64,000 nt of DNA from an uncultured Candidatus Saccharibacteria bacterium (GTDB lineage Bacteria > Patescibacteriota > Andersenbacteria > UBA10190), in contig CAYMOF010000001.1 of NCBI GenBank assembly GCA_964392095.1, forward strand, positions 12,401 to 76,400. Direction: 5' to 3'. Position 1 is the first letter of the stretch. Each line of letters starts with the position of its first letter. Under the pieces are notes generated by a model. It worked only from the letters and a program-made list of their open reading frames with translations, did no database searches and was not told where the DNA came from. The position numbers were made by a program, and so were the translations under genes. Of the stretch, positions 1,250-63,919 are shown piece by piece.

Positions 1250-1353
1250 ATATAACCATTATACATTTTTATCTTTTTCAAATTTGATCTTTTCCTTTAC
1301 TAATTAATAAATAAAGCTATTAACTCTACTCTTAATAAGCCCTTTATTATTAT

Positions 1354-3269: not shown

Positions 3270-3271
3270 AT

Positions 3272-5596: not shown

Positions 5597-5611
5597 CCTC
5601 GTCCAATCCCT

Positions 5612-18996: not shown

Positions 18997-19005
18997 ATAA
19001 ATTCC

Positions 19006-50587: not shown

Positions 50588-50821
50588 ACCCACCCCGCTA
50601 AACACTGAACTGTAAGCGTTTTATCCCAAAATGATATAAAATACCTTAACCTAACGAAAAACATAAAAGAAGCTCAAATGCGACATCAACTATATTTCAC
50701 TTACTCCGACGGCCATCTTAACAAAACCGGATCAGAAATAATCGGCCGCGCCCTAGTTAAAAAATTCACTTCCTGGCTTCAAAATAAACCCGCTCACAAA
50801 TAACTTTGTCTTTCGATTTTT

Positions 50822-51556
50822 ATGGTTTCTCTCCTCTCCTCTAACTACCTCTCCCGCTTTCCCGTGGACCAAGCCATGAAACGGTTCAGTCGCCGTTTCA
50901 ATCCTTCTCAAAAAGTCCTGGATATCGGCTGTGGTCATAAGCCCTACGCCAAATATTTCTCCTGTGAATACACGGGACTAGATCACTCAAAAAATACTTC
51001 AGCCGATATAATTGCCGACAGCTCTTCTATTCCTCTGCCCGACAACTCATTTGACGGCATAATCTTAAACCAAACCCTGGAACATACCCAAAACCTTGCC
51101 GATACAATCAACGAAATAAAACGTCTCTTAAAAAAAGACGGTCTTTGTCTTATCTCCGTACCCGCGGCTATGAAAATACATTCCCTTCCTCTGCCTGTAA
51201 AAGAAGCCCCCGCGAACAACTTTAAACCCGATCTTTTAAGCTACTGGAACATCGACTACTGGCGATTCACCAAATACGGACTCATTATCCTTTTCCGCGA
51301 TTTCTACGTTTTAAACATAAAAGAAACCTCCGGCTACTTCGGCACCCTTTTTCAGATGTCCAATTACTTCTTCGCCTCGTTTGGTTTAGGAAAATTATTT
51401 TCTCCCCTATACTTCATCAATAACGCTTTAGGAGTCTCTATTGACGCAGTAGTTATCAAAACCTGCCGAAACAGTCCTGTTGCTGTCCTTAAAAAGTTTT
51501 ACGACCTTATCTACTCAAGTTTTCCTCTCAACTATATATTGATTATTAAAAAATAG
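50822..51556 (+). CDS. Class I SAM-dependent methyltransferase
   Basis: KVLDIGCGHKPY (motif I), DGIILNQTLEH, DGLCLISVP. Confidence 0.7.
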   Translation: MVSLLSSNYLSRFPVDQAMKRFSRRFNPSQKVLDIGCGHKPYAKYFSCEYTGLDHSKNTSADIIADSSSIPLPDNSFDGIILNQTLEHTQNLADTINEIKRLLKKDGLCLISVPAAMKIHSLPLPVKEAPANNFKPDLLSYWNIDYWRFTKYGLIILFRDFYVLNIKETSGYFGTLFQMSNYFFASFGLGKLFSPLYFINNALGVSIDAVVIKTCRNSPVAVLKKFYDLIYSSFPLNYILIIKK

Positions 51557-51613
51557 CTTCTTGCTATCTCTACTCACAATCATAAAAACTGAACCCTCGC
51601 CTATAGAAAAATT

Positions 51614-52432
51614 ATGAAATACTACGACCCCAAAAACAAAAGATTATACTTCACCGGCCCGGCGGCTACCTGCTGTTACTGGGACAAACAATGGAAAGAA
51701 GACAATGACATTGTAAAGCTCCTCAAAACCGGCGGCGGCGACAATCTAGTCAGATCAATCACTCCCAAGTTTATCCAGCCCTCCCCTCAAGCCAAAGTAA
51801 TTGACGCCGGCTGCGGCAAAGGACAACACGTTGTCTCTTTAAAAAATCTGGGCTACTCGTCTTATGGGGTTGACTACGCCCCTAAAACCATCTCTCTCAT
51901 AAAAAAAATCAGGCCTGACCTGAAAGTAAGTTGTGCCGACATTACCGACCTCCCTTTTCCTAATGCCTACTTCGACGGTTACTGGTCGCTGGGAGTAATT
52001 GAACATTTCTACTCCGGCTTCGAGCCAGCGGCTAAAGAGATGGCCAGAGTAGTAAAGCCAAACGGCTACCTCTTTCTTGTTTTTCCCCACATGTCCTCCT
52101 TAAGAAAAACAAAATCGGCTTTATCTTTTTATCACACCTTCGACCCTCAAATTCACGACGCTGCCCATTTTTATCAGTTCGCGCTCCACGACAAAGACGT
52201 TATCAAAACCATGAGCCAATACGGCTTTCGCCTGATTTCCAAGAAGAAAAACAACGGACTTAAAGGACTAAAAGATGAATCGGCCTTCCTAAAGCCGCTA
52301 CTTCAACAACTATACGATCACCCTTCCCCGCCTATAAAAGCCACTAAAGTAATACTTTCAAAATTACTAACCCCGCTCACCAGCCACACTGTCGTTCTGG
52401 TTATGAAGAAGCAGGATAATAATTACGCCTAA
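51614..52432 (+). CDS. Class I SAM-dependent methyltransferase
   Basis: KVIDAGCGKGQH (motif I), FDGYWSLGVIEH, NGYLFLVFPH. Confidence 0.75.
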   Translation: MKYYDPKNKRLYFTGPAATCCYWDKQWKEDNDIVKLLKTGGGDNLVRSITPKFIQPSPQAKVIDAGCGKGQHVVSLKNLGYSSYGVDYAPKTISLIKKIRPDLKVSCADITDLPFPNAYFDGYWSLGVIEHFYSGFEPAAKEMARVVKPNGYLFLVFPHMSSLRKTKSALSFYHTFDPQIHDAAHFYQFALHDKDVIKTMSQYGFRLISKKKNNGLKGLKDESAFLKPLLQQLYDHPSPPIKATKVILSKLLTPLTSHTVVLVMKKQDNNYA

Positions 52433-53144
52433 CGTAATCATACAACTTTATATCCAAATCATTTTTCTTCCTTATTGTTTCCAGCTGTCCTTCGGTTAAC
52501 CCTCCCGTCCTAGTACGCGGTCGGTTAGCGTTATATCTTTTCTTTTCGCTATACTGTATCTCCTCGTCCTTAAAACCAAGTTTTTCTTTAACTTCCCGCA
52601 AAAACAAATCATATTTCTCCATTAGTCCCACCACCGCGAAATTATCCAGGTTTTTCTTAGCTTGTTCCAAATCACACTTATAAGGGTAAGACAGCCACTT
52701 AGTCATGTGGTTTGACTGCCGGCATAAAACCCCTCCGCTGTGCATATAATTATCCTCCTCTTCATTAAACCATTGATTAAACGGCATCTTCTCTTTTACT
52801 GCCTCGCTCACTTGATTTCTAGTCATTTTCCTGGCTTTCATAGGCGCGTCAAATAAGTACTTATAATACTCTGACAAAACCCGATCCACCGGCTCCCTTA
52901 ACAACACCACGTATTTACCGCCAGGCACGATTTCATCCTGCGCTTCCGGATTATAGGCCTGGTGAAAAGAATACACGCTGTAAGGCCTCTTGATAACACC
53001 GTCCAGCTCTTGATGATAGCTTCGATAATTATACACTTTCATTCCTCTTCGCCTGGCATACCTAACCAACAAACCATAAAAAGTGCTGCTTCCCACCCGG
53101 ACAAGCCTCACAAAGATAATCCTAGTCTGATTTTCCCTTCCCAT
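52401..53144 (-). CDS. PAPS-dependent sulfotransferase family protein
   Basis: RVGSSTF (5'-phosphosulfate-binding loop analogue of KTGTT) and LLREPVDRVLSEY (3'-phosphate-binding RDP..R..S motif). The 3' end overlaps the convergent MTase by 32 nt. Confidence 0.6.
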   Translation of the reverse strand: MGRENQTRIIFVRLVRVGSSTFYGLLVRYARRRGMKVYNYRSYHQELDGVIKRPYSVYSFHQAYNPEAQDEIVPGGKYVVLLREPVDRVLSEYYKYLFDAPMKARKMTRNQVSEAVKEKMPFNQWFNEEEDNYMHSGGVLCRQSNHMTKWLSYPYKCDLEQAKKNLDNFAVVGLMEKYDLFLREVKEKLGFKDEEIQYSEKKRYNANRPRTRTGGLTEGQLETIRKKNDLDIKLYDYVRRNYYPASS

Positions 53145-53149
53145 AATAA

Positions 53150-53995
53150 TTATTTCTTCTGCCTTAATTCCCTAAGCTTAGATGTTACTAAGAGCAAAGA
53201 TCTAACAATCTTCTCTGTAAACTTACGCGGTCCTTCTATTGGATTCAACTGTCTCTGGCAAGCTACTTTCAACACAAACTCATTGTCAACATTCCTATAT
53301 AAACCCCGCTCGTAACAGCCTCGCCCCCTAGCCTCCATTATCGGCTCTAAACCCTCTTTAATAAACTTGTCTGGCCTCGGCAGAGCCGCCGTCTCCAACA
53401 AAGCTACTCTGTATCCAGCATCAAACAATTCGCTCAAAACCCCCTTCAAAGAGCGCCCCTCGTCATATATTAATGGATGCACTTCCATTAATATATTTAC
53501 TTCATTTGTCCTTTTCAAATAATCCAGGCTTCCCCGCAACACATCCACCTCATAACCTTCTATGTCCATTTTTACAACTATGGGTCCACAAATATCTTGC
53601 TCTTTTATGAAGCTTTCAAGGGTAACATACTCTGTCTTTATTGAATCATCATAAGACTCCGCGGCAATTGCCGTGCTTAAATTCCTTTTCTTTTTATTCA
53701 AATAAAAAAAACCTTTACCGCTCTGGTCAGAAACCGCCTGGGAAAATAAATAAAAATTATCTCGACTGCCCAGAATCCTAGTTATTTTATTTCTGTTATA
53801 ACTGTCCGGCTCCAAAATATAAATCTTAATATCGTCACCATATTTTTTGAACAAGTATCTAGCCTCATAACCATCGCTCGACCCAATTTCTATAACATTC
53901 GTACCAGCTACCACCGCCTCATCCAACATGGCCATAAATATCGGCTCTCTCGGCTCTCTTTTTAAAATCTTAACAAGTTGTCGCGCCTTAATCAT
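53150..53995 (-). CDS. FkbM-family SAM-dependent methyltransferase
   Basis: NVIEIGSSDGYEARYL and VVKMDIEGYEVDVLRGS. Confidence 0.7.
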   Translation of the reverse strand: MIKARQLVKILKREPREPIFMAMLDEAVVAGTNVIEIGSSDGYEARYLFKKYGDDIKIYILEPDSYNRNKITRILGSRDNFYLFSQAVSDQSGKGFFYLNKKKRNLSTAIAAESYDDSIKTEYVTLESFIKEQDICGPIVVKMDIEGYEVDVLRGSLDYLKRTNEVNILMEVHPLIYDEGRSLKGVLSELFDAGYRVALLETAALPRPDKFIKEGLEPIMEARGRGCYERGLYRNVDNEFVLKVACQRQLNPIEGPRKFTEKIVRSLLLVTSKLRELRQKK

Positions 53996-54585
53996 CTAAC
54001 AAATCTTTTTAAAACACTCTTCAGCCACGCCCCCAGTCTCCCCTTGGCTCTGATCCTGTTTTCTAAATACTCGCTCTGATCCGTTTCCATTTTGGGAGTC
54101 TGCCAGTCTCCGTATTGATACTCTAAATACTCTTCCGGCGACGACGGACATTCATACCAGCTCCCCCGAAACAAAATCTTCCCCGTATTATTAAAAAACT
54201 TAATCGGATAACGCCAGTTCCTCCTTTTTCTGAATCTGCTCTTCTCCTCATATCCTAATAAAGAATATTTCGTTCCATACTTATGAACATTAATCTTCAT
54301 GTTGCCCTTATCGATCACTATCGACCCCGGCCTAAAACCTGAATTTCTCAACCCTTCTTTTATTGCCTCGAATTTTTCCTGCATCTGCTCCGCGTACAAA
54401 GCCAGCTCCACATCCCAGTCCCACTTAATAAAATCTTTTTCTCTCACCGCCCCCAACAAAACCCCGTCAATCAACAAAAATTTTACCCCCAAGCCATCCA
54501 ACACCCTTTTTATTTGAACCAAACCTTCATTGCGATTTTCCAACTCCTCTTTAGAAAATATTTTTAGCTTTTTATCCAACTTCAT
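53992..54585 (-). CDS. LicD-family phosphotransferase (phosphocholine/alditol-phosphate transferase family)
   Basis: KFLLIDGVLLGAVREKDFIKWDWDVELAL matches the LicD motif (LLGAVRH.GFIPWDDDIDV). Confidence 0.75.
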   Translation of the reverse strand: MKLDKKLKIFSKEELENRNEGLVQIKRVLDGLGVKFLLIDGVLLGAVREKDFIKWDWDVELALYAEQMQEKFEAIKEGLRNSGFRPGSIVIDKGNMKINVHKYGTKYSLLGYEEKSRFRKRRNWRYPIKFFNNTGKILFRGSWYECPSSPEEYLEYQYGDWQTPKMETDQSEYLENRIRAKGRLGAWLKSVLKRFVR

Positions 54586-54604
54586 ATTTTATCTTAATAT
54601 CAAA

Positions 54605-54724
54605 GCTAGTTCTTTTGGCGAATTAGAGGTCCTTTTCGGCCTGGTCCCACGCTCAGCGTGGACGAAAAGGGCCAAAGCCTCGGAGCTACCGCTGGGGCAA
54701 CGAGAATGAGCCAAAAGAACTAGC
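54605..54724. repeat. 120-bp GC-rich palindromic element. Perfect 15-bp terminal inverted repeats enclose nested hairpins. Candidate structured RNA or MITE-like element.
   Basis: GCTAGTTCTTTTGGC (54605-54619) is the exact reverse complement of GCCAAAAGAACTAGC (54710-54724). Inner stems are 54631-54638/54663-54670 (CCTTTTCG/CGAAAAGG) and 54647-54652/54656-54661 (CCACGC/GCGTGG). Confidence 0.4.
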
Positions 54725-54746
54725 CTTGATAATCCAAAACATAAAC

Positions 54747-55568
54747 TCACCATTTCCCCTTATAAAATAATCTCTGAAAAGGCACCGGAATAAAATGCTT
54801 CGGCGCCATCCCTAAATGCTTTACTTTTTCTTTCGGTAAATATTTCTTCCATAATTCCAACTTATCATAAAAGCACTTTAGCCTCTTATACCTCATATCA
54901 GACCATTTGTGCTGAAACGGCTTGCCGATAATCAGATAATATATAGGGCCTTTATAGTGCAATATATGGCATTCCTCACCCCACGGCTCATAATGCCGCG
55001 CTCTATTTAACTCACCCACATAAAAACCCTTAAACCTCACTCCATATTTAGTAAACGGCTTCGTATAATCCTCTCCCTCAACCAATGACATAAACGCGTG
55101 TTGATCAGTACCTCCTTTATCAACAATTTCCATAGTCTTTTCTTTGTACTTCCTGAAAAAATCCCTTACCGCCCGATTATTCCTACACAACATCACCCCG
55201 CTGTTTAACCACTCTTTCGGCACATGTGACAAATATCGGTAAGTAAAACCTATATCATAATCTCCAAAATACTGATCGACGGGCTTTAAAATCAGTGTAT
55301 CCGCGTCCATAAACAACACCCAATCTCCCTCAGCCTTCTCCAGACCCATCTCCCAGCAAGGTAGTTTCAAGCTTCCTGGATGGGGATGCGAATCCATCTT
55401 TTCCCGCAAAATAACATCTTCAATGGGAATATCCTTGCCTACCACAATAGGCTTAATGCCCGGATAAACCCGCCTGATGCTTTCTTTTAAAGCTTCCAAA
55501 AACAAGTCAACCTTGCTCCCAAAAGCCGCCACCACTATGTCTAAACCATTTTTTTTAATATTGGTCAT
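54747..55568 (-). CDS. GT8-like nucleotide-diphospho-sugar (GT-A) glycosyltransferase
   Basis: FMDADTLIL (DXD) and WLNSGVMLCRNN (GT8 motif resembling F.NSGVLLIN). Confidence 0.5.
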   Translation of the reverse strand: MTNIKKNGLDIVVAAFGSKVDLFLEALKESIRRVYPGIKPIVVGKDIPIEDVILREKMDSHPHPGSLKLPCWEMGLEKAEGDWVLFMDADTLILKPVDQYFGDYDIGFTYRYLSHVPKEWLNSGVMLCRNNRAVRDFFRKYKEKTMEIVDKGGTDQHAFMSLVEGEDYTKPFTKYGVRFKGFYVGELNRARHYEPWGEECHILHYKGPIYYLIIGKPFQHKWSDMRYKRLKCFYDKLELWKKYLPKEKVKHLGMAPKHFIPVPFQRLFYKGKW

Positions 55569-55577
55569 TGGCCATCA

Positions 55578-55606
55578 TTGACTAGTAGTCATCTGTCCAT
55601 TATACA
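55578..55606 (+). promoter_or_regulatory. Sigma70-type promoter candidate (TTGACT-N17-TATACA) embedded in the 13-bp palindrome TGACTAGTAGTCA
   Basis: TTGACT at 55578-55583, a 17-nt spacer, TATACA at 55601-55606, and GAAGG about 8 nt before the 55678 ATG. The palindrome at 55579-55591 overlaps the -35. Confidence 0.35.
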
Positions 55607-55677
55607 TACAAGGCCTGAACTGCCATAGTCGGCGTCAGGAAAATTCGCACCTTTCACAATTTCTGAAGGCTTTAGTC

Positions 55678-56456
55678 ATGAGTTTCAAGCTCCAAGTTCT
55701 CGGTTCTGGTATCGCTGCTCCTTTTGATAACCGCATGCCTTCCGGATACCTCGTCATCACCGGCAACACAGAGATCTTGCTCGAATGCAATCCATTCACT
55801 ATCGGAGCCCGCCTATCCGCCATTAACATCACCTCAATCTCTGGAATCCTCGTCACCCACGCCCACAACGACCACTCCGGTGGAGAAGTCGCCTTCCTGG
55901 AAGCCTTCCGCACCAGACACAAAATACTCGGAAAGCCGATTCCCCCCTTTACTTTATGCGGCCCCGCCCCAAACCGTTTCTTCAAGACATACCTTAAAAA
56001 ACAACTTCAGTGGCGCTGGCCGGAATTGCCAGAAGAAGATTGTTTTTGGAAAATCCCATCAGAATTGAATCGCTTCTCGCTGGGTGATGCCTGGATAACC
56101 GCCTTTCCTGTCAACCGCGTCCCCGAAATGCCGGCCGTCGGCTACCATATCCAGTATGGAAATCAGTCCTTAGTCTACTGCGGCGATTTTGGCACCACTC
56201 AATTCCAAAACGTCAACACCCTTGGCCAGTGGATCACCGACGCTGACCTGCTCATCCTCGACTGCGGAGCCCCCACTGAATCCCCAGCCACCTGACCATT
56301 GAGCAGGGCCACAAGATCAAACAGCGGTTCCTCGCCCGCAAACTCCTGGCCACCCACATTCCCGCTCACCGCGTAGGAAATGTCCGCGAGCGCATCGCTG
56401 CCCTCAATGACCCAGATGTCATCCTCGCTGAAGATCTCATGGTGCTTGATATCTAA
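55678..56456 (+). pseudogene. MBL-fold metallo-hydrolase, ~60% GC, interrupted by a frameshift near 56280-56293
   Basis: ILVTHAHNDHSGG (HxHxDH) and CGDFG. The ORF stops at 56295, but the C-terminal remainder (HLTIEQGHKIKQRFLARKLLATHIPAHR...MVLDI*) continues in another frame from 56280 to 56456. The shift maps to C-homopolymers (CCCCC at 56270-56274, CCCC at 56282-56285). Confidence 0.6.
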
Positions 56457-56554
56457 ACCAACTTCAGCAACTTCCCGCAACACATAGCACCCTCTTCTAC
56501 CATCCCTAGTTTACCTCGGATGGTTTTTTCTTACCAAACAATACTCGCAAGTTA

Positions 56555-57235
56555 TCATTTTCCATTTTCTCTCCTTCCCCACATTCTCTTCACCTTCCCT
56601 AAAATATTCTTCAACACCACATTTCCTCTTTTTCCAGCAAAATGATCCGCGTTATAATACTCCTCATCAATATCGGATCTCTTGGGGGTTTGCCAGTCAC
56701 CATAAACATGCTCCAAGAACTTTTCCGGCGGTGACGGCACTAAAAACTGCCTCCCCTTAAAATCGATTTTCTCTTTTTCGTTGAAAAAACGAGCCGGGTA
56801 CTTATAAGCCGGACGAGTCCTGTACTCACCATCGTCACGCAATGCCCCTAAAGCGATTTTTTGGCCGTATTTAAAAAACGCCATCTTAGGAAACCTATTA
56901 CTTTCAATCAACCGCACCACGAAACCAGCCTCTATCAACCTTTCTTTCAATTCCTTCATCACCCCGACAAACTCCTCCTCCAACATGTCCAAATCAACAT
57001 CATCGTCCCAGGCAATGAAATTATTCTCTCTAATTGCCCCCAGTAAACTTCCCCCCGTTAACCAAAACCTGACGCCGGCAGAACTCAATACGTCGCTGGC
57101 CTCCTGCAAGGCCTTCTCTCTTGCCTGTAAATCAAACGGGTAAGGTTGGACTACTCGGGGTCTTGCTTTTTTCCATCTCCTGCGCGACAGGTTGCTCAAA
57201 CGCCTGATTTCACCTTGTGAAAATTCGTAACTCAT
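56555..57235 (-). CDS. LicD-family phosphotransferase (second paralog)
   Basis: RFWLTGGSLLGAIRENNFIAWDDDVDLDM. Roughly 45% identical by eye to the LicD at 53992. Confidence 0.75.
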   Translation of the reverse strand: MSYEFSQGEIRRLSNLSRRRWKKARPRVVQPYPFDLQAREKALQEASDVLSSAGVRFWLTGGSLLGAIRENNFIAWDDDVDLDMLEEEFVGVMKELKERLIEAGFVVRLIESNRFPKMAFFKYGQKIALGALRDDGEYRTRPAYKYPARFFNEKEKIDFKGRQFLVPSPPEKFLEHVYGDWQTPKRSDIDEEYYNADHFAGKRGNVVLKNILGKVKRMWGRRENGK

Positions 57236-57912
57236 ACCATCTTCACACTATACCTCCACCTGGACTGCATATAAAACTCTAATCGATCAATATCCTCATC
57301 ATAAAATTCAACCTTTCTGCCCAACTCATCCCCGATTTTAATAAAAAATTCTTTATCATAAAACATATGGCTCGGGGTAACCTTTCCCCCGACCTTTTTT
57401 CGGCTCTCCAGCCTATCTAAATATCTTTCCCTCTTCTTTTTCTTACCCGCATCATTCACATCACCGATAATAATTCGTCCGTCCTTTTTGGCCACCCTAA
57501 CCATCTCTTTAACCGCCTGGATCGCGTACTTACAAGACGGAAAATACTGCCAAACGCTCCAAGCGCAAACCACGTCAAAACGATTGTCATCAAAAGGAAT
57601 CTTATTAGCTTCGGCTACTCTAAAATCACCCTCTATGTTTTTCCTGATAATATCAATTGAATCTTTAGCGTAATCAACCCCCGCCAAACTTCCCCACTTT
57701 TCAACCTCCATAAGAATCGCCCCCGCCCCGCAACCTACCTCCAAAACATCATCCCGAGAGCCAATCTCACACAGATCCAAAAAATAGTCGGCCAAATCCT
57801 TCCACTGTTTTCTATTTAGGGTTTCAAAACCATCCATCACGTGAAGAATATCAACATCGCCGCCAGGCCGATATTTTTTGTCCCATATTTTTAACCACTG
57901 TTTATCCCTCAT
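57232..57912 (-). CDS. Class I SAM-dependent methyltransferase
   Basis: VLEVGCGAGAIL (motif I), FDVVCAWSVWQYF, DGRIIIGDV. Confidence 0.7.
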   Translation of the reverse strand: MRDKQWLKIWDKKYRPGGDVDILHVMDGFETLNRKQWKDLADYFLDLCEIGSRDDVLEVGCGAGAILMEVEKWGSLAGVDYAKDSIDIIRKNIEGDFRVAEANKIPFDDNRFDVVCAWSVWQYFPSCKYAIQAVKEMVRVAKKDGRIIIGDVNDAGKKKKRERYLDRLESRKKVGGKVTPSHMFYDKEFFIKIGDELGRKVEFYDEDIDRLEFYMQSRWRYSVKMV

Positions 57913-59714
57913 ATGTCTATCCTGATCCTGCCCTGATCAACAGAAGAATATCCGGCAGAAAAGACGGTTCCCTCTTTCACATAATCCTTAGCCCCTTTTA
58001 CCGCCTGTTCTCTTTCCATTTCCGGTATTTTTTTTGATACTTCCTCACTGTCATCAGCCCACCCCTCCTCGCTAAGCCTGTAAGCCTCGACCCTTTTTAC
58101 ATTATCGCTATTAATCACGCCATTTTTAAACCCAAAGAAAACTATCCACTTGTAATGATCATCATATCCGGCTACTCCCACTGATCCAAGAGTCTTGTAA
58201 TCTACCGTTTCATTAATCCAATAAACACCTCCGTAAAACCTCTCGCTTACCGCCTCGTAGTATCCGGGCAACTCCCAGCCGGCCACTTCCGCCAGTAAAC
58301 CATAAACAGAAGATGTCGCACTAATAAATTTACCAGCTTTTTCTTGCCACCTGCCAGCACCTTCCCAGCCTTCTGAAGTTTTAAACATCATTGGCACCCG
58401 CAAGCGGTCCTCATAAAACTGATAACTATATCTGGTATAAGGCGGTACCGACCGGCCATGATCAGCCAATAACACAATATGACTCTGGGGAAAATACGAC
58501 TCCCCTTCCAACCAGGTCAACAGAGTTTCCAAAAACAAATCCAGCTGTTTCAAAGTCTCCCAATACCCGCTAAAAGCCGCGTTGTTTTTATCTTTTGTGC
58601 CTCTAATACTCGCGTAGGGCGGGTGGGCCCCAGGCAAATGCAAATGAACATAAGTCGGCTCCCGCCTAGCATTAGCTATAAATTGCGTCGCTGTTTTTAG
58701 GGACGGATATTTTCTTATCCGACCACTGCAAACATTTATGTACCTGTGAAAACCACGCGCGTGCCCATATTGAGGCCGCCACTTGGAAAAAAAAGTCAAG
58801 CCTAAGCTTTTGTAACCGTCACCCGAGGCCAATTCAGCCACCGTTTTTATACGAGGAGAAAGTGTCATTAATTTGTCGCTATAATGCCAAGTGTCATAGT
58901 CGTAAATCATATGCCTGGTTAAACCCAGGCCGGTCATCAAACAAGCCGAAGCGCTGCCGGTCACGCTAGCCGAACACACCGCCTTTTTAAAAACAATTGA
59001 ATTTTCGGCCATCTTATTAAACCCCTTCAGCTCCGTCCGGCCCCTTAGGTCACTAGCCGTCACCGCGTCAACAGATAATACCAACAACAGGGGGGGCTTT
59101 TGTCCTTTTTTTTTAAAACAAGCCCTAGTTAAAAAAACTTTTTTATCATTTTTTTTGCCGCTCTTATCTTTAACCTCGACGTCATCAACATAAACAGTTA
59201 AATTTCCCTCTTTACTTACTAATTGATCGGGAATCTCAACCAACAACTCCACCCACCAGTCTTCTTTATCAACATTTCTCGCAAAATCTCTGTCAAAACC
59301 GCACTTAAAACTATATTCTTCCCCCTCTTTGTTGCCGTAACCACTTCCAAAAATCATCCTGCCCTTCACCCGCAAAGACCCAATCTCTCCTACCGGCTTT
59401 CCCGTAAAAACCTCAAAAGACACTTCTCGACCCGCTTTTACCCCCTTCCTCTCATACACTTTCACTGGTCCGCTCTTGCCCCACTTTCTACAAAGCCTGC
59501 CTTCATAACTTTGATAATCACGTGTTTTTTCTTTATGAATCAAAACCACGCTCCTCTCTTTTTCAATCCCAACAACTCGACCGCGCTTGTATCTGCCAAC
59601 CTTCACGGACACCAGATACTTCACTTTCTCCCAGGCTTTCTTAATCTCTTCCCGCCAATTAAGCCTTTCTTCAAATACTAAAATCTGTTGCTTTTTATCG
59701 CTCACACTCCACAA
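57909..59714 (-). CDS. Alkaline-phosphatase-superfamily sulfatase-like protein with ~190-aa N-terminal soluble extension. Lacks the C/S-x-P-x-R FGly motif.
   Basis: LLLVLSVDAVTASDL (metal-binding Asp region), HLHLPGAHPPY, IVLLADHG (sulfatase/LtaS GDHG motif). The nucleophile region is TGSASACLMTG in place of CxPSRxxxLTG. No TM helix. The sense strand carries A9 (top T9 at 59106-59114). Confidence 0.6.
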   Translation of the reverse strand: MWSVSDKKQQILVFEERLNWREEIKKAWEKVKYLVSVKVGRYKRGRVVGIEKERSVVLIHKEKTRDYQSYEGRLCRKWGKSGPVKVYERKGVKAGREVSFEVFTGKPVGEIGSLRVKGRMIFGSGYGNKEGEEYSFKCGFDRDFARNVDKEDWWVELLVEIPDQLVSKEGNLTVYVDDVEVKDKSGKKNDKKVFLTRACFKKKGQKPPLLLVLSVDAVTASDLRGRTELKGFNKMAENSIVFKKAVCSASVTGSASACLMTGLGLTRHMIYDYDTWHYSDKLMTLSPRIKTVAELASGDGYKSLGLTFFSKWRPQYGHARGFHRYINVCSGRIRKYPSLKTATQFIANARREPTYVHLHLPGAHPPYASIRGTKDKNNAAFSGYWETLKQLDLFLETLLTWLEGESYFPQSHIVLLADHGRSVPPYTRYSYQFYEDRLRVPMMFKTSEGWEGAGRWQEKAGKFISATSSVYGLLAEVAGWELPGYYEAVSERFYGGVYWINETVDYKTLGSVGVAGYDDHYKWIVFFGFKNGVINSDNVKRVEAYRLSEEGWADDSEEVSKKIPEMEREQAVKGAKDYVKEGTVFSAGYSSVDQGRIRIDI

Positions 59715-59796
59715 CTATTAATTACATTTATTATTACATCCGGACCTGGATATTGGGATCGCCCCATATAATAATCCGCTTCTTTCACGTCACTCC

Positions 59797-62004
59797 TTAA
59801 TAAAACACTCTCTTTCCAGCCCCTACCCTTTTTCTAACCATCTCCTGAATCTCCCTCCGCATAAACCAGTCCGGCAGATCCCTGCCTTCCTGAAAAGCCT
59901 TGCGGGCCTGGGTACCGCTAATCATCTCCACTGTGCCCGCTTCACTCAAACTCACATAAGTTTTCCTTTTAGGATTAAAACCAACCGCCTCAAAGAATAC
60001 CGGCTCAACACCAATATCCCCAACCTTTTCAAATATTTCCTTTGTTTCTCTGGGCTTATAAAAATCTCCTACTCCAGTATGGTCGCGCCCGACAATAAAA
60101 TGGCTACACCCCATATTTTTCCTGCATAAGGCAGTAAATACTGCCTCCCTGGGGCCGGCGTATCTTGAATAAGTGGAAAAGCTTCCTAAAACAGCCCTGC
60201 CTTTAGGATAAGCTCCGTTTTTAATAGCCAGTTCATAGCTTCTCATTATCGGCCCCGTTAACCAGTCACCGCTTTTCTTAGGGCCTATCACCGGGCTCAA
60301 AAATAACCCGCTTGCTCCCGTCCTTTTAAGGGCCGTCAACTGCAAATACTCGTGCGCTCTATGCACCACATTTCTTGTATGAAAACCCACCACTTTACGC
60401 CACCCCTTATGGGTAAATATTTGCCGCGTCTGATGCGGATCCAGCTCATATTTCCGCCAAACAGAATCCCCTTTTTCTATCAATTCCACCTCTCCCGCTA
60501 TAAACATCTCCCCCGATTCCATAAACCTTCTCACTCCCGGATGATCCCGAGACGTTGTCTTAAACCACAGCCTGGCCGCTTCTTCCCGATCACATTCATA
60601 AACTTCGCTAACTTTCAATAAACTATGCTTTTTGCCCTTGCCATCTTTTAGAACAACTCTCATGCCCGGTTTAATTTTTTCAGCTCTTCTTCTATCTACC
60701 TGCAATATAACCGGCATAGTCCAAACGCACCCGTTCAGCAATTTCATATCATATAAAACACTAAACAGCTCGTCTTTAGTCATAAATCCAGAAACCGGTG
60801 AAAATGTGCCTAGAGCGATCTGCTCACAATCCATCAGGTCGGTATCCTCCACTGTCAAGCTCATCAAATCATCTAAATCTTCCTTTGAACCGCTATACAA
60901 ATTTTTCAAAAGTTTTCCCCCGTGAGGCTCCACCAGCATAGACACCGAAGTGGACACTATGAAGCTTTTCGTTTCTCCGACCTCCCTTTCATATTGCTTC
61001 ATTAATCTTATTATCATTTCCGCGCAAGCTACCGGATATCTGCCCACCGCCGTCTCAGCCGCTAACACCAAACCGTCAGCCCCGTCCGCTAAAGTGTTGT
61101 AAATATCATTAACTTCCGCCCTGGTAGGAACAGGCGCTTCCACCATAGATTCCAACAGATTAGTGGCCACGTAAACGCGCCTGTCCAGATTATGACACTC
61201 AGCAATTATTTTTTTCTGCAAACGAGGAAGCAGCTCTATTGAAGCCTCCCGCGACAAATCGCCTCGATCAATCAAGATATCGTTCGCGCTTGCGGCAATC
61301 TGCTTCAAATTTAACAACCCTTCTTCACATTCAATTTTCGCCGTAACCTTAAACCCTTCCCCAACAATTTCTCTCACCTCTTGTATATCTTCAACGCGAT
61401 GAGCAAAAGATAACGCCACGTTGCTTATCCCCAAACCTTTAACCTGCTTCAAAGCCTCTCTGTCTTTATCTGTTAAAGGAGATAACCTTATTTTTCTATC
61501 AACAGAAAGAGCTTTGTTCTGCTCAATTATCCCTTCTTCCAAAACCTTTAAAATCACTTTTTTCTCGTCTTTTACAATAACCCGCAACAAAACTTTTCTA
61601 TAATCAACGGTCACCAGATCCCCAACCCGCAAGCTTCTGCCTACTTCTTCTGGGTAAAAACTGAAATTAGGCCCCGCGGCTATCGCGTTACCCCCACCTT
61701 CTTTTAGATAAACCGTTAACTCCTCCTCCTCTTCCACCCAAATTTTTCTTCCTCCCTGATATCCCGTCCTGGGCTGGGCTCCTTCCGTATCAATACATAT
61801 CGGAACCGCGCTGTGTCTTCTAACCAGCCCCACCAAATTACCTAAATCATAAACATCCGTATGAGACATGTTGATTCTGAACAAATTAACCCCCAGATCC
61901 GTTAAGCTCCTTATTACCTCCGCGTTCATTGACGCCGGTCCCAAGGTGCACCAAACTTCTTTTCCCTTATTAAATTTGGATATTTCTGACATAAACTTCG
62001 TCAA
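59797..62004 (-). CDS. Fusion protein: pyruvate-kinase-like N-terminal domain (A+B domains, catalytic residues conserved) joined to a complete ATP sulfurylase (sulfate adenylyltransferase, Sat type)
   Basis: N-terminal part: TLGPAS..NLFRINMSHTD, IDTEGAQPRTG, KIECEEG, DRGDLS, ATNLLESMVEAPVPTRAEVNDIYNTLADGADGLVLAAETAVGRYP (PK signatures). C-terminal part: PUA-like segment LVEPHGGKLL..., then GFHTRNVVHRAHEYL (QTRNP.HRAHE motif) and IVGRDHTGVGDFY (GRDHAG motif). Confidence 0.75.
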   Translation of the reverse strand: MTKFMSEISKFNKGKEVWCTLGPASMNAEVIRSLTDLGVNLFRINMSHTDVYDLGNLVGLVRRHSAVPICIDTEGAQPRTGYQGGRKIWVEEEEELTVYLKEGGGNAIAAGPNFSFYPEEVGRSLRVGDLVTVDYRKVLLRVIVKDEKKVILKVLEEGIIEQNKALSVDRKIRLSPLTDKDREALKQVKGLGISNVALSFAHRVEDIQEVREIVGEGFKVTAKIECEEGLLNLKQIAASANDILIDRGDLSREASIELLPRLQKKIIAECHNLDRRVYVATNLLESMVEAPVPTRAEVNDIYNTLADGADGLVLAAETAVGRYPVACAEMIIRLMKQYEREVGETKSFIVSTSVSMLVEPHGGKLLKNLYSGSKEDLDDLMSLTVEDTDLMDCEQIALGTFSPVSGFMTKDELFSVLYDMKLLNGCVWTMPVILQVDRRRAEKIKPGMRVVLKDGKGKKHSLLKVSEVYECDREEAARLWFKTTSRDHPGVRRFMESGEMFIAGEVELIEKGDSVWRKYELDPHQTRQIFTHKGWRKVVGFHTRNVVHRAHEYLQLTALKRTGASGLFLSPVIGPKKSGDWLTGPIMRSYELAIKNGAYPKGRAVLGSFSTYSRYAGPREAVFTALCRKNMGCSHFIVGRDHTGVGDFYKPRETKEIFEKVGDIGVEPVFFEAVGFNPKRKTYVSLSEAGTVEMISGTQARKAFQEGRDLPDWFMRREIQEMVRKRVGAGKRVFY

Positions 62005-62069
62005 TTAACTACCTCTGCTTTCTAAGCATACTTTCCATGAAAACCAAATACAAACACTATTAAAACACA

Positions 62070-63860
62070 TTATCCGCCTTGCGCAGCCAGCAATCTCGCG
62101 TAGAGACCTCCTTTTTGTTTCAATTTCTCGTGAGCCCCTTCTTCCGTTATTTGGCCCCTGTCTAACACGACAATTCTGTCCGCGTCGGCTATGGTCGATA
62201 AACGGTGAGCAATAACCACACTCGTCCGCCCCGCCCCCACCCTGTCTAAAGCTTCCTGCACCAAATTCTCCGACTCGCTATCCAAAGCCGAAGTTGCCTC
62301 GTCTAGAATCAATATTTCCGGATTCCGCAAAACCGCCCTGGCAATAGCTATACGCTGTCTCTGTCCGCCCGACAGTCTTATACCCCTATCCCCCAGCATA
62401 GTATTATACCCCCCCTTAAAACTGGTGATAAATTCATGAGCGTTAGCTAATTTTGCCGCTCTTTTTATATCAGCAAACGTCGCTTTCTCATCCGCGAAAC
62501 CTATATTAGCCTTTATCGTGTCGTTAAACATAAACGTATCTTGCGTCACCACCCCAATATGCTCCCGCCAAGACTCGATTCTATAATCTCTCAAGTCCGT
62601 GCCATCAACCACAATCCTTCCCTCCTGCGGATCAAAAAACCTAAGCAGTAATCCAGCCACGGTAGATTTCCCCCCCCCTGAAGGCCCAACAATAGCCACC
62701 TTCTTTCCTTTTCTAACAACAAAAGACACGTTTCTTAAAGCATAATGATCGTCCTCACTATATGTAAAACCAATCTTTTTAAAAACGATCTCTTTTGCTA
62801 AACCGTTATAACTCTTCTCCCCATCCGGCAAATAAACCTTATTGCTTTTATTCAAAAACTCATCCAGTCCCTTAAGAGCCGGCAACACACCGGCTATACT
62901 CGCCCGCCCCTGGTTAATCATGGCTACCGGCACTATTAGCCTGAACAGAATAATCACAAAAGTTAAAAGCGCTTCCATCCACTTGTTAAGATCTCCGGCT
63001 AACAAAAAAGAGGCCACTATTAATATCAAAGCCAGCGACGTTACGCTTGTCATTTCAAACATTGGTAAAACCGATGCGTTGGCCCGCGCCCCCATGTAAG
63101 TGGCGTCAGCATTTTTGTCTATCGCCTTATACACCTCTCTTCTCACTAACTTTTCCCTGTTAAACGCTTTTATCACTCTCATTCCGCCAATAGCCGACAA
63201 TATCAGGTCATTAAGTTTTTTCATAGCTTCGTTCCCCAGTTTATTGGCCATCTCCGCTCTTTTCATTGCCCCCCTTAATGTCAGTGACGACAAAAATACC
63301 AGCACCAGCGAAACTATAGTTAATTGCCAGGATATAACAAACAGCATCATCAAAAGCACCAGTATTGTGAATAATTTCGGTATCATCGGCCCCACCGCAT
63401 TAACCAGAGTGCCCATCCAACTAGTGTAATAGGACGCGATAGTAAACAAATCTGAGCCTCTTTGCTTTTCCAGATAACCGGTGCTTACCTGCAACAACTG
63501 CGTAAAGCAGAATCGCCGAAACCTGCTCACGGTATTAGCCACTAAGCGAGCGGTAACTTTAGCGTTAAAGTAATAAACCGCCCCCTTTAACGTCGTTAAA
63601 ACCAAAAGCAGTACGGCCACCCGGCGGATACGATCCACGGCGCCTACGTCTGCAAACCAGCGCGCGAAAACATTCAGCGCCGCGGGCAGAGCGCTAACTT
63701 CACTGCCGCTCACGCCCTGAAGCAACGGAACCACCAGTGTCATTGTCAGTCCTTCCAACACCGACACCGCGACTCCTGATACCGCTAAACCGGCTACCAG
63801 CCAGGGAAACAATTTATACAGCCTGTATCCTCTTTTTATTAAATCAATATAAACCCGCAT
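62070..63860 (-). CDS. ABC exporter, fused TMD-NBD (MsbA/type I exporter-like)
   Basis: Six-helix TMD, then Walker A GPSGGGKST, signature LSGGQRQRIAIARA, Walker B ILILDEAT. The track ORF starts at TTG 63896. The first ATG is at 63858-63860 (MRVYIDL...). Confidence 0.85.
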   Translation of the reverse strand: MRVYIDLIKRGYRLYKLFPWLVAGLAVSGVAVSVLEGLTMTLVVPLLQGVSGSEVSALPAALNVFARWFADVGAVDRIRRVAVLLLVLTTLKGAVYYFNAKVTARLVANTVSRFRRFCFTQLLQVSTGYLEKQRGSDLFTIASYYTSWMGTLVNAVGPMIPKLFTILVLLMMLFVISWQLTIVSLVLVFLSSLTLRGAMKRAEMANKLGNEAMKKLNDLILSAIGGMRVIKAFNREKLVRREVYKAIDKNADATYMGARANASVLPMFEMTSVTSLALILIVASFLLAGDLNKWMEALLTFVIILFRLIVPVAMINQGRASIAGVLPALKGLDEFLNKSNKVYLPDGEKSYNGLAKEIVFKKIGFTYSEDDHYALRNVSFVVRKGKKVAIVGPSGGGKSTVAGLLLRFFDPQEGRIVVDGTDLRDYRIESWREHIGVVTQDTFMFNDTIKANIGFADEKATFADIKRAAKLANAHEFITSFKGGYNTMLGDRGIRLSGGQRQRIAIARAVLRNPEILILDEATSALDSESENLVQEALDRVGAGRTSVVIAHRLSTIADADRIVVLDRGQITEEGAHEKLKQKGGLYARLLAAQGG

Positions 63861-63879
63861 AGCTAAATGGTACTTTATA

Positions 63880-63919
63880 ACCACCGGCCAACACAAAACT
63901 CCCGAAGGGATCCTTTGGG
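63880..63919 (-). terminator. Weak hairpin followed by a U-tract on the minus strand (possible terminator for an off-window upstream gene, or 5'-leader structure of the ABC gene)
   Basis: Imperfect hairpin at 63901-63919 (CCCGAAGGGATCCTTTGGG). On the minus-strand transcript it is followed by AGUUUUGUGUU. The stem is interrupted by mismatches on that strand. Confidence 0.2.

Follow-up and report, generated by a model that had tools for sequence, protein, structure and literature searches.

Described systems for sulfate activation and glycan decoration

The closest described counterparts of the central enzyme of this locus are the bifunctional PAPS synthases and other Sat-APS kinase fusions, exemplified by human PAPSS1/2, the Aquifex aeolicus enzyme (2gks), and the fungal Sat with its APS-kinase-like domain. 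Sulfate activation is GTP-coupled in CysDN and NodPQ, the latter acting with NodH in Nod-factor sulfation. These families consist of a PP-loop CysD and a GTPase CysN, and are unrelated to the fusion protein described below. They nevertheless resemble the system proposed here in that APS/PAPS synthesis is pulled at the cost of an additional high-energy phosphate, and in that a dedicated activation system lies beside sulfotransferases for glycoconjugate sulfation; the driving reagent would be PEP in the proposed coupling, but is GTP in theirs.

Other parts of the locus recall phosphonoglycan clusters, for which LicD-like transferases and Ppm-PF12804 fusions have been described (PMC6697681), and the cyanobacterial synechan xss unit, which comprises regulators, EPS machinery, and sulfotransferases, and for which the searched passages of the published account mention no dedicated sulfate-activation gene (PMC13125312). 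Both loci combine bacterial Wzx/Wzy- or ABC-type polysaccharide machinery with sulfotransferases, whereas the locus analysed here has its own activation enzyme, a fusion of a pyruvate-kinase-like (PK-like) domain to an ATP sulfurylase (Sat), hereafter PK-Sat. On the explanation that we favour, and which as a whole we rate at somewhat better than even chances, the region at 49.6–63.9 kb of the window (the entire 64-kb stretch of DNA analysed) would be a glycan-decoration block within a polysaccharide locus exceeding 60 kb, served by a PEP-driven supply of PAPS.

Organization of the locus

The features of the block are the following.

49583..52432, plus strand: convergent GT1 (334 aa), methyltransferase (244 aa), and methyltransferase (272 aa) (Pfam)
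52401..53144, minus strand: divergent Sulfotransfer_2-family sulfotransferase closing the unit (end-to-end alignment, 36.8 bits; cutoff 22)
53150..53995, minus strand: FkbM-family methyltransferase (Pfam Methyltransf_21 4e-18, TIGR01444)
53992..54585, minus strand: LicD-family paralogue b (Pfam LicD 33.7 bits)
54747..55568, minus strand: GT-A-fold putative glycosyltransferase with a DxD motif (sub-threshold Nucleotid_trans and GT2 matches)
55678..56295, plus strand: metallo-beta-lactamase-fold hydrolase interrupting the block (Pfam Lactamase_B_2 5.4e-12, Lactamase_B 9.2e-10)
56555..57235, minus strand: paralogue a of the LicD-family phospho(no)-alcohol transferases (Pfam LicD 61 bits; cutoff 22.6)
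57232..57912, minus strand: class I SAM methyltransferase (Pfam Methyltransf_11/25/31)
57909..59714, minus strand: cytoplasmic AlkP-superfamily (sulfatase-fold) enzyme (Pfam Sulfatase 1.1e-16, Phosphodiest 2e-8)
59797..62004, minus strand: PK-Sat fusion, 735 aa (Pfam PK 2.7e-59, PUA_2 6.4e-42, ATP-sulfurylase 3.7e-67)
61027..61959, minus strand: PK-like barrel domain of PK-Sat, residues 16-326 (alignment to E. coli-type PK)
59830..60453, minus strand: ATP-sulfurylase catalytic domain of PK-Sat, residues 518-725 (HTRN for QTRN, GRDHTG for GRDHAG)
62070..63896, minus strand: ABC exporter, fused TMD and NBD, HepA/MsbA/PglK-like (Pfam ABC_membrane and ABC_tran)

Pfam searches covered all window ORFs of at least 150 aa. 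ORF and domain calls recovered at 52401-63896 every gene named in the original prediction, confirming that observation, and its interpretation is supported in part: a sulfate-activation enzyme and a sulfotransferase-fold enzyme do lie inside a very large glycan locus, beside LicD-type transferases and methyltransferases. The block had also been described as contiguous on the minus strand, but the plus-strand metallo-beta-lactamase-fold gene, which has no match in the related locus L169, sits in a 986-nt gap, and at least two minus-strand transcription units are therefore present. As for 54747-55568, the proposed "GT8-like" label is not established, since the Nucleotid_trans score (20.4 bits) stays below the cutoff of 22 and the PDB match, a GT77/GT8-like transferase, is weak (E 0.05). 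A promoter-like site is found at this gene (55626-55599), and no counterpart of the gene was found in L169.

Two loci, L169 and L172, have the ABC exporter, PK-Sat, AlkP-fold, class I methyltransferase, two LicD, and FkbM genes in common with the window, at 35-53% identity. The exporter, first gene of the conserved block, occupies the same position in L169 (49% identity). The class I methyltransferase gene overlaps both of its neighbours by 4 nt, and its L169 orthologue is 40% identical.

The PK-Sat fusion

PK-Sat consists of a pyruvate-kinase A+B barrel lacking the C-terminal domain, followed by a PUA-like domain and then by the ATP-sulfurylase catalytic domain. More than 120 full-length homologues, distributed over many phyla, were found at 49-54% identity, and the alignment shows invariant catalytic residues in both halves. 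The barrel keeps R43/N45/S47, D72/T73, K223/E225, D249, and T281, and its subfamily is marked by the signatures DTEGAQ, LIDRGDLSR, VATNLLES, and PTRAEVND. Like the PAPS synthases, PK-Sat joins a homologous Sat domain (PDB matches with E 1e-31 to 1e-59) to a second nucleotide-handling domain that would aid sulfate activation, and one homologue, L012, is a PK-Sat-APSK triple fusion. It differs from them in that its partner is an N-terminal pyruvate-kinase barrel, with the APS kinase encoded by a separate gene, and in its anion pocket (HTRN/GRDHTG against QTRN/GRDHAG). The latter difference extends throughout the subfamily: H[TSG]RN is found in 47/47 PK-fused Sats and GRDH[TS]G in 37/40, whereas plain Sats carry QTRN (67/69) and GRDHAG (68/70). 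The Gln and Ala positions of these motifs have sulfate-ligand roles (PMC3779200), so that both non-Arg sulfate ligands are substituted and strict sulfate specificity is not guaranteed. The RN, HRAH, GxxKxxD, and GRD elements are retained.

The most frequent neighbours of PK-Sat are sulfotransferases and APS kinase, and homologues lie within sulfotransferase clusters, as in L001 and L003. Two censuses around PK-like genes counted Sulfotransfer_3, Sulfotransfer_1, and APS_kinase 6, 5, and 4 times among 81 ORFs, and 11, 8, and 9 times among 116 ORFs. The same PK-like subfamily also occurs as stand-alone proteins adjoining APS kinase, around which the corresponding counts were 11, 7, and 12 among 109 ORFs. 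No paper or solved structure for the PK-Sat architecture was found. The original prediction did list the fusion, but gave too little weight to what is its most unusual element; the true novelty of the locus lies in a pyruvate-kinase-like partner of bacterial sulfate activation that is both widespread and uncharacterised.

The APS kinase

The original prediction noted that the 64 kb lack a recognisable APS kinase, and indeed none of the window ORFs of 150 aa or more matches Pfam APS_kinase. A custom HMM, which was built from 50+ APS-kinase sequences and applied with --max to every window ORF of 40 aa or more, matched only the ABC transporter P-loop (E 0.008). The question raised by this absence, namely the route to PAPS, arises mostly from where the window ends. 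In L169, PK-Sat is preceded some 6.5 kb upstream by the APS kinase, immediately past the ABC exporter, a position which in the present locus falls beyond base 64000. By this synteny, the APS kinase of this organism is probably encoded just outside the window, immediately upstream of the exporter. An APS kinase is found within 300 nt in 17/43 evaluable PK-Sat loci (about 40% adjacent or fused, counting the triple fusion) and in 15/30 stand-alone PK-like loci. Because of the L169 synteny and this family-wide adjacency, the puzzle of the missing kinase largely dissolves. Among the collected PK-Sat loci, 31/51, including the window, have no APS kinase in the 8-10 kb around, and no recurrent substitute gene was seen beside them. 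Nor do they form a separate subclade: PK-Sats from loci with a neighbouring kinase are interspersed with those from loci lacking one, the window protein being 49-50% identical to both kinds.

The glycan-modifying enzymes

The sulfotransferase call passed the HMM check suggested for it, as the window ORF clears the Sulfotransfer_2 cutoff. The best matches of its AF2 model (pLDDT 81.7) are the HS 2-O/6-O sulfotransferases of this family (4ndz/3f5f/5t05; E 2e-6, TM 0.5-0.58), and about the top 33 PDB matches are all sulfotransferases. Of the two motifs claimed for it, the 3'-PB motif (R-x-P-x-x-R-x-x-S) is kept, with invariant R83/P85/S91 plus the conserved His (H61) and N145; the 5'-PSB loop is non-canonical, reading VRVGSST against PKTGGTT in relatives, with the PSB Lys replaced by Arg, His13 by Arg, and Pro15 by Val. 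It is a small, soluble protein of bacterial origin, unlike the HS enzymes, to which it is about 16-18% identical, and a single relative with E <1e-30 was found among 1.8 billion representatives. The gene order LicD-FkbM-sulfotransferase recurs in L087 and L088. In L169, however, a counterpart is absent from the corresponding place, although PK-Sat and APS kinase are present. The sulfotransferase is therefore accessory to the conserved block rather than a core member, and the conserved core may use the activated anion otherwise.

The AlkP-fold enzyme had been taken as a sulfatase-like argument for sulfated glycans. It carries Thr252 at the nucleophile position, where sulfatases have formylglycine, and the C/S-x-P-x-R formylglycine motif was not found in it, so its identity as a classical sulfatase was rejected and the argument falls. 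Its metal ligands (D216, H359/H364, D418-H419) are conserved and, like the Thr, invariant. The sulfatase-type fold is shared with S1 sulfatases and with the phosphotransferases LtaS, EptA, and YejM, from which the window enzyme differs by being cytoplasmic, by lacking a membrane anchor, by a unique N-terminal region of about 200 aa, and by its genomic locking to PK-Sat, directly downstream of which its gene is found in the window as in L169 and L172, three loci in all. S1 sulfatases are the best Foldseek matches of its AF2 model (pLDDT 67.6, with a poorly predicted nucleophile loop), and LtaS and YejM score nearly equal.

Both LicD paralogues score above the Pfam threshold. The N-terminal core, which contains the DxD, can be aligned with FKRP, a CDP-alcohol phosphotransferase that is the closest solved homologue of paralogue a (E 4e-10). 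Compared with LicD/FKRP enzymes, both are short (197 aa and 226 aa). Paralogue a has the canonical WDDDVD motif and is 49% identical to its L169 orthologue, whereas paralogue b has WDWDVE (DVE for DVD) and shares 81% identity with its L088 relative and 48% with the LicD portion of a LicD-FkbM fusion in L169. The L169 genes directly upstream of the ABC exporter comprise, besides the APS kinase, a cassette for 2-aminoethylphosphonate (Ppm-PntC, Ppd, a second nucleotidyltransferase, and an aminotransferase). In having Ppd, a Ppm-PF12804 fusion, and an aminotransferase next to orthologous LicD genes, L169 resembles the PntC-LicD route of phosphonoglycan tailoring (PMC6697681), and the LicD donor in L169 is probably CMP-2-aminoethylphosphonate. 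The window differs from that route, as donor-synthesis genes (kinase, cytidylyltransferase, PEP mutase/Ppm) were not found within its 64 kb.

A proposed pathway and its alternatives

Most probably, a surface polysaccharide is decorated with sulfate, methyl, and phospho(no)-alcohol groups by the enzymes of the block. Given its conserved catalytic motifs, the Sat half of PK-Sat would convert ATP and sulfate to APS; the next step, to PAPS, would fall to an APS kinase whose gene would lie beyond the window. On chemical grounds, the PK-like half could draw on PEP to turn the ADP that this kinase releases back into ATP; a high local level of ATP and a low one of ADP would thereby be maintained, pulling an unfavourable pathway forward. 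The Sulfotransfer_2-family enzyme, to judge from its fold and motifs, would sulfate the glycan, the two LicD paralogues would use a CMP-activated donor to transfer a phospho- or phosphono-alcohol head group, and the class I and FkbM methyltransferases would methylate the head group or sugars. The AlkP-fold enzyme may perform a further phosphoryl, possibly sulfuryl, transfer or hydrolysis, and the ABC exporter would move the lipid-linked or finished product.

The substituted anion pocket raises the possibility that PK-fused Sats adenylylate another tetrahedral oxyanion, such as a phosphonate, phosphoramidate, or methyl-phosphate, that the APS-kinase homologue 3'-phosphorylates the product, and that the AlkP-fold, LicD, or methyltransferase enzymes use it. 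The Campylobacter O-methyl-phosphoramidate (MeOPN) pathway offers a parallel, and the conserved core in L169, which lacks a canonical sulfotransferase, as well as L007, where GATase/Peptidase_C26, NTP_transf_3, and a second APS-kinase homologue lie beside PK-Sat, would fit such a scheme. It is nonetheless unlikely, since Sulfotransfer_1/_3 are the commonest neighbours in all three independent censuses, a sulfotransferase-fold enzyme is present in the window itself, and the Arg, Asn, HRAH, and GxxKxxD residues are all retained; moreover, hydrogen bonds to sulfate remain available to His and Thr, and at the Ala position contact is made by a backbone NH (PMC3779200). Quite improbable is a role of the AlkP-fold enzyme as the real sulfuryl transferase, acting through a sulfo-Thr formed from APS or PAPS, with the Sulfotransfer_2 protein as an add-on. 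Its position next to PK-Sat, its invariant metal ligands and Thr, its fold, which is nearest to that of S1 carbohydrate sulfatases, and a second sulfatase-fold gene without formylglycine in the L007 PK-Sat locus are in keeping with this role. Such an enzyme would be without precedent, however, the model is of moderate quality, the phosphotransferases match almost as well, a homologue in L170 has no PK-Sat nearby, and the majority of PK-Sat loci lack such a gene.

The kinase-less loci invite another reading, one that would give a positive answer to the question left open in the original prediction: the PK-like domain would act as a PEP-dependent APS 3'-kinase, so that PK-Sat could make PAPS by itself and a CysC-type kinase would be unneeded. 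APS is an analogue of ADP and the PK nucleotide-site residues are conserved, but pyruvate kinase chemistry targets a terminal phosphate, not a ribose 3'-OH. A canonical APS kinase adjoining the PK-like subfamily in 40-50% of loci, and fused to it in L012, would be redundant, the syntenic L169 cluster has one, and the intermixing of PK-Sats with and without a neighbouring kinase also speaks against this very improbable reading. Finally, a Sat-type enzyme can supply APS reductase, and the window has no APS kinase, so PK-Sat might be an assimilatory ATP sulfurylase lying in a glycan locus by chance and serving a purpose other than sulfation. That is extremely improbable: the ABC-PK-Sat-AlkP-methyltransferase-LicD order is kept in three lineages at only 35-53% identity, and the family-wide setting is one of sulfotransferase/APS-kinase clusters, not cys operons.

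At the edges of the block, the GT1 and the two methyltransferases at 49583..52432 are part of the same conserved neighbourhood, their L169 orthologues being 45-47% identical with the arrangement kept. The ABC exporter scores 502 bits against NCBIfam HepA_fam_ABC, under its cutoff of 725, and its true start is probably an internal ATG (MRVYIDL...).

Gene organization of the block

ORF and Pfam calls place the genes of the original prediction at 52401-63896 as described, with minor corrections only. They are listed here in transcription order, followed by one plus-strand gene.

62070-63896 (-), ABC exporter, first in transcription order
59797-62004 (-), fusion of a pyruvate-kinase (PK) barrel, PUA_2 and ATP-sulfurylase (PK-Sat), 735 aa
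57909-59714 (-), AlkP-superfamily protein, 601 aa
57232-57912 (-), class I methyltransferase
56555-57235 (-), LicD, paralogue a, followed by a gap of 986 nt
54747-55568 (-), GT-A-like protein, first after the gap
53992-54585 (-), second LicD, paralogue b
53150-53995 (-), FkbM methyltransferase
52401-53144 (-), Sulfotransfer_2 protein, last of the block
55678-56295 (+), short metallo-beta-lactamase-fold gene, 205 aa, HxHxDH motif, inside the 986-nt gap

The block was presented earlier as contiguous, but it is interrupted by the plus-strand metallo-beta-lactamase-fold gene, which had gone unmentioned, and it must therefore comprise at least two minus-strand transcription units. The only informative result of a promoter and terminator scan of the window was a promoter-like site immediately 5' of the GT-A gene; no Rfam family or tRNA was matched anywhere in the window. 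A firm GT8 assignment for the GT-A-like protein was dropped, as every match was sub-threshold. No C-terminus of a preceding gene is encoded in the 100 nt before the ABC exporter, and the end of the window therefore hints at nothing beyond. The window as a whole is one very large polysaccharide locus, with more than 20 glycosyltransferases of the GT1, GT2, GT4 and GT9 types, three Wzx-like flippases, MurJ, YfhO, a RimK-type ATP-grasp protein, a Mur ligase, a deacetylase and a DegT aminotransferase.

The PK-Sat fusion protein

Both halves of PK-Sat are recognized by their families. The A and B domains of the PK barrel score 201 bits against PF00224, and the sulfurylase half scores 143 and 226 bits against PF14306 and PF01747, respectively. 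Judged by alignment to E. coli-type PK, the catalytic and metal/K+ residues are kept, namely R43/N45/S47 (R-x-N-x-S), D72/T73, K223/E225, D249 and T281, all of them invariant except for D72/T73, which are conserved. The C-terminal allosteric domain (PK_C) is absent, with Sat in its place, and the equivalog-level score against TIGR01064 is 249, below the cutoff of 306. Subfamily changes are found in several PK motifs: DTKGPE becomes DTEGAQ, ARGDLG becomes DRGDLS (LIDRGDLSR), ATQ becomes ATN, and LSGE becomes LAAE.

The Sat half conserves H548-R-A-H551, R544-N545, G574..K577..D580 and the GRD motif. Three contacts bind the sulfate of APS in known Sats and are described as strictly conserved (PMC3779200): an Arg, the Gln of the QXRN motif and, through its backbone NH, the Ala of GRDHAG. 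The window protein departs from this pattern, with HTRN for QTRN and GRDHTG for GRDHAG, and so do nearly all PK-fused Sats, whereas plain Sats from the same data set keep the canonical loops, as do all PDB Sats whose alignments were inspected (QTRN and GRDHAG). Such a remodelled pocket may reflect a tuned affinity for sulfate, or may be the sign of a different anion.

Table. Anion-pocket loops of PK-fused and plain Sats from the same data set
RN loop: PK-fused Sats, H[TSG]RN in 47/47; plain Sats, QTRN in 67/69
GRD loop: PK-fused Sats, GRDH[TS]G in 37/40; plain Sats, GRDHAG in 68/70

A widespread family that travels with APS kinases and sulfotransferases

At least 120 full-length homologues with 49-54% identity stand among the matches listed out of 5046, and every one listed shares the three-domain architecture. 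They represent Alpha-, Beta- and Gammaproteobacteria, Bacteroidota, Verrucomicrobiota, Omnitrophota, Anaerolineae, Microthrixaceae and a Pacearchaeota MAG, and current annotations call them 'pyruvate kinase' or 'ATP sulfurylase'. Among the carriers of PK-Sat are Mesorhizobium amorphae NBRC 102496, Methyloversatilis discipulorum and closed MAGs of Rhodospirillales and Nisaea. The PK-Sat architecture is found in no solved structure, and a search of the full-text literature found nothing on it or on its combinations with APS kinases and sulfotransferases.

To describe its neighbourhoods, 12 fusion loci were gathered from GTDB genomes, together with a further 80 metagenomic loci that carry the PK-like domain. 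An APS kinase lies within 300 nt of PK-Sat in 17 of 43 evaluable loci, including one locus (L012, 9998-12787) in which PK-Sat and the kinase form a triple fusion of 929 aa. The PK-like subfamily is also found without Sat, as a separate protein of about 348 aa, and an APS kinase is then directly adjacent in half of the evaluable cases (15/30). Individual loci illustrate the same company: in Methyloversatilis, genes for two sulfotransferases, TauE and an HD protein come after PK-Sat; an Omnitrophota genome has the order sulfotransferase-sulfotransferase-PK-Sat-APS kinase; and in Desulfobacula (L026, 9989-11600) a PK-like gene, an APS kinase and an ABC exporter stand in a row. Arrangements beyond the plain PK-Sat, namely the triple fusion and the stand-alone barrel directly followed by an APS kinase, are exemplified by L012, L026, L122, L124, L125, L131, L135, L136 and others.

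Table. Pfam census of neighbouring ORFs; sulfotransferase counts overlap, as one protein can match both families
PK-Sat loci, genomes (81 ORFs): Sulfotransfer_3, 6; Sulfotransfer_1, 5; APS_kinase, 4
PK-Sat loci, metagenomes (116 ORFs): Sulfotransfer_3, 11; Sulfotransfer_1, 8; APS_kinase, 9
Stand-alone PK-like loci (109 ORFs): Sulfotransfer_3, 11; Sulfotransfer_1, 7; APS_kinase, 12

From the adjacency of APS kinases and these censuses, it follows that the PK-like protein regularly accompanies Sat, APS kinase and sulfotransferases as a third partner. It travels with them in Proteobacteria, Bacteroidota, Verrucomicrobiota, Omnitrophota, Chloroflexota and Actinomycetota, and even in a Pacearchaeota MAG. 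On these data, bacterial sulfate activation would have a third component that has apparently not been described. The PK-Sat / PK-like-APSK module is a widespread, mis-annotated and apparently uncharacterized variant of this process, with a remodelled anion pocket.

Two further features of these neighbourhoods were noted. In L007 (12187-16421), the genes downstream of a sulfotransferase-PK-Sat-APS kinase array encode a GATase/Peptidase_C26 protein, an NTP_transf_3 nucleotidyltransferase, a sulfatase-fold protein lacking the formylglycine (FGly) motif, and a second APS-kinase homologue, a set that we take to be partly reminiscent of the Campylobacter O-methyl-phosphoramidate pathway. NeuB, the PEP-dependent nonulosonic-acid synthase, recurs near PK-Sat or PK-like genes, as in L005, L006 and L026 (3 of the 81 neighbouring ORFs from genome loci, plus L006 and L026), which hints at sulfated or otherwise modified nonulosonic acids as one target class.

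The missing APS kinase and the syntenic loci

The original prediction stressed that no APS kinase was recognizable in the 64 kb, leaving the route to PAPS as a puzzle. The absence itself is borne out: PF01583 matches no window ORF of at least 150 aa, and a custom APS-kinase HMM built from more than 50 sequences, run without filters on all window ORFs of at least 40 aa, matched only the ABC P-loop. Within the family, PK-Sat sequences that have an adjacent kinase intermix with those that lack one, and identity to the window protein is 49-50% for either kind. The kinase label agrees between nearest neighbours in 31 of 45 cases, against 0.53 expected by chance, and the two kinds do not separate. 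When the neighbours of 31 kinase-less PK-Sat loci were clustered, no recurrent unknown family emerged, the largest cluster covering 5 loci.

The puzzle, by contrast, looks mainly like an effect of the window edge. A 218-kb JGI contig (L169) is syntenic with the window, with identities of 49% for the ABC exporter, 50% for PK-Sat, 39% for the AlkP-fold enzyme, 40% for the methyltransferase and 49% for LicD. Its LicD-FkbM fusion is 48% and 35% identical to the window counterparts, and convergent genes for two methyltransferases and a GT1 are also common to both (45-47% identity). A second locus, L172, repeats the block in the order PK-Sat-AlkP-MTase-FkbM-LicD-LicD-FkbM. Immediately upstream of its ABC exporter, L169 encodes an APS kinase, a PEP-mutase/PF12804 fusion, a phosphonopyruvate-decarboxylase-type TPP enzyme, a second nucleotidyltransferase and an aminotransferase (772-6000). 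The position matching this kinase cassette lies beyond base 64000 of the window, on a source contig of 83.7 kb, and the simplest reading is that the APS kinase gene sits shortly past the window edge or at another place in the genome. Compared with L169, the sulfotransferase, the GT-A gene and the metallo-beta-lactamase-fold gene, which has no counterpart there, are additions to a conserved core.

The cassette of L169 corresponds to the set of genes for 2-aminoethylphosphonate (AEP) synthesis and CMP activation (PMC6697681), so that sulfate activation and phosphonate tailoring are linked in a single operon-like array.

The sulfotransferase

The product of 52401-53144 passed the HMM check that had been set beforehand for the sulfotransferase call: it scores 36.8 bits against Sulfotransfer_2 (PF03567; cutoff 22), with an end-to-end alignment of residues 6-237 to profile positions 8-251 of 252. 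The description as a PAPS-type enzyme with 5'-PSB and 3'-PB motifs stands for the second motif and less well for the first. The 3'-PB motif R-x-P-x-x-R-x-x-S is kept as LREPVDRVLS; in an alignment of 55 relatives, R83, P85 and S91 are invariant and R88 is found in 54, and the family invariants H61 and N145 are also kept. The 5'-PSB loop is atypical, reading R-L-V-R-V-G-S-S-T instead of the consensus H-I-P-K-T-G-G-T-T. Besides the changes H13 to R and P15 to V, its catalytic Lys is replaced by Arg (Lys in 47 and Arg in 8 of the 55 relatives), and the Arg may stand in for the Lys.

A search of PDB sequences gave no match; PDB matches came only from the fold search. The heparan-sulfate 2-O and 6-O sulfotransferases in their PAP-bound form are the best Foldseek matches of the AF2 model (pLDDT 81.7, pTM 0.84) in the PDB, and essentially all of the first 33 or so matches are sulfotransferases. 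Among 1.84 billion representative sequences, 971 relatives were found at E <=1e-3 and only one at E <=1e-30. The protein is thus a divergent member of the Sulfotransfer_2 family, whose fold and intact 3'-phosphate site speak for a donor with a 3'-phosphate, such as PAPS. The order LicD-FkbM-sulfotransferase is kept beside two metagenomic relatives with 73-75% identity.

The AlkP-fold enzyme

The gene at 57909-59714 had been called sulfatase-like and counted as evidence for sulfation. Its product scores 61.5 bits against PF00884 (Sulfatase), and the AlkP-type metal ligands D216, H359/H364 and D418-H419 are conserved, with D216 and D418-H419 being invariant. Where an FGly sulfatase carries C/S-x-P-x-R, the aligned stretch reads T-G-S-A-S (…SVTGSAS…), and T252 is invariant in all four members of the family (the window protein and three relatives). 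AlkP-superfamily enzymes with a Thr nucleophile are typically phosphodiesterases or phosphotransferases. Given the missing FGly motif and the Thr at the nucleophile position, an FGly sulfatase was rejected, and the gene speaks neither for sulfation nor for sulfate-ester turnover. An AF2 model of moderate quality (pLDDT 67.6), with a poorly predicted nucleophile loop, has S1 carbohydrate sulfatases as its top Foldseek matches (E 6e-13), with the LtaS and YejM phosphotransferases close behind. The protein has no obvious membrane anchor, and its conserved N-terminal region of about 200 aa matches no family.

LicD paralogues and a proposed decoration pathway

The two LicD paralogues score 61 and 33.7 bits against PF04991 (cutoff 22.6), with only the N-terminal 40 or so profile positions aligning. 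Their nearest solved homologue is FKRP, to whose WDYDVD motif the WDDDVD of paralogue a aligns; paralogue b has WDWDVE. No cytidylyltransferase, kinase or Ppm gene that would supply a CDP or CMP donor is found in the 64 kb; such genes are present in the syntenic L169.

Domain identities, conserved catalytic residues, synteny and the family-wide association with APS kinases and sulfotransferases are backed by data, and from them we infer the following steps. On the strength of its sequence motifs, the Sat half would form APS, which a CysC-type kinase would convert to PAPS; the PK-like domain would use PEP to turn the ADP of this kinase back into ATP; and the sulfotransferase would then sulfate the glycan. 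In parallel, the most likely role of the LicD paralogues is to attach a phospho- or phosphono-alcohol taken from a CMP or CDP donor, AEP being the candidate suggested by L169. The methyltransferases would modify the head group or the sugars, and export or flipping would fall to the ABC exporter. Energetically, the formation of APS is highly unfavourable, and APS kinase tends to be trapped in a dead-end E-ADP-APS complex; removing ADP and supplying ATP locally would therefore pull the pathway. A PEP-driven ATP supply can be likened to CysDN, in which GTP hydrolysis pulls the pathway.

Sulfation remains a reasonable reading, with the sulfotransferase upheld by both HMM and fold, even if the sulfatase-like gene lends it no support, and we regard the overall picture of a sulfate arm, a LicD and methyl arm and export as rather probable. 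Two less likely readings, in which the module would be no conventional PAPS synthase, can be set beside it. PK-Sat, with or without APSK, may make a different 3'-phospho-adenylyl donor, as the Gln to His and Ala to Thr changes in the pocket and the presence of a PEP-using domain would allow; or its product may go to the co-conserved FGly-less sulfatase-fold enzyme, which would then be a sulfuryl or phosphoryl transferase of a new kind acting on glycans. Both are kept alive by the altered Sat pocket, by L169, which has PK-Sat and an APS kinase yet no Pfam sulfotransferase within 10 kb on either side, and by the recurrence of FGly-less sulfatase-fold neighbours, which adjoin PK-Sat in the window, L169 and L172, with a different subfamily in L007. 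The two readings are improbable even when taken jointly. If true, either would represent new activation or transfer chemistry across many bacterial phyla.

The sulfation of bacterial glycans is poorly charted, and the value of the present finding lies in the PK-Sat / PK-like-APSK module. If the PK-like domain is a PEP-driven ATP recycler, it would be nature's answer to the thermodynamics and the product inhibition that hamper PAPS synthesis, and a component that metabolic engineers could use as it stands; should the altered anion pocket stand for a different substrate, the biochemistry would be new. The supply of PAPS is a known bottleneck for engineered sulfated polysaccharides (PMC13125312). 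In addition, plain 'pyruvate kinase' or 'ATP sulfurylase' labels can mislead metabolic reconstructions from MAGs, for example through inflated calls of glycolysis or sulfate assimilation.

Other features of the window

Within the glycan locus, a RimK-type ATP-grasp gene, a polysaccharide deacetylase and a Mur-ligase-like gene are clustered at 17508-20289 (+), which suggests an amino-acid or peptide decoration of the polymer. An ORF for a polytopic membrane protein of at least 419 aa (1-1260, -) runs off the start of the window and probably encodes a polymerase, a ligase or a GT-C-type protein. Large ORFs (392-782 aa) without any Pfam match lie at 29479-31572 (-), 33907-36255 (+), 7662-9170 (+) and 10780-11958 (+). 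Finally, the GC skew is about -0.3 in each 2-kb bin of the window (1-64000), irrespective of gene orientation, and the coding-strand GC3 skew is -0.53 for plus-strand and +0.46 for minus-strand genes, an extreme asymmetry that suggests an unusually strong strand-specific bias of mutation in the source genome.
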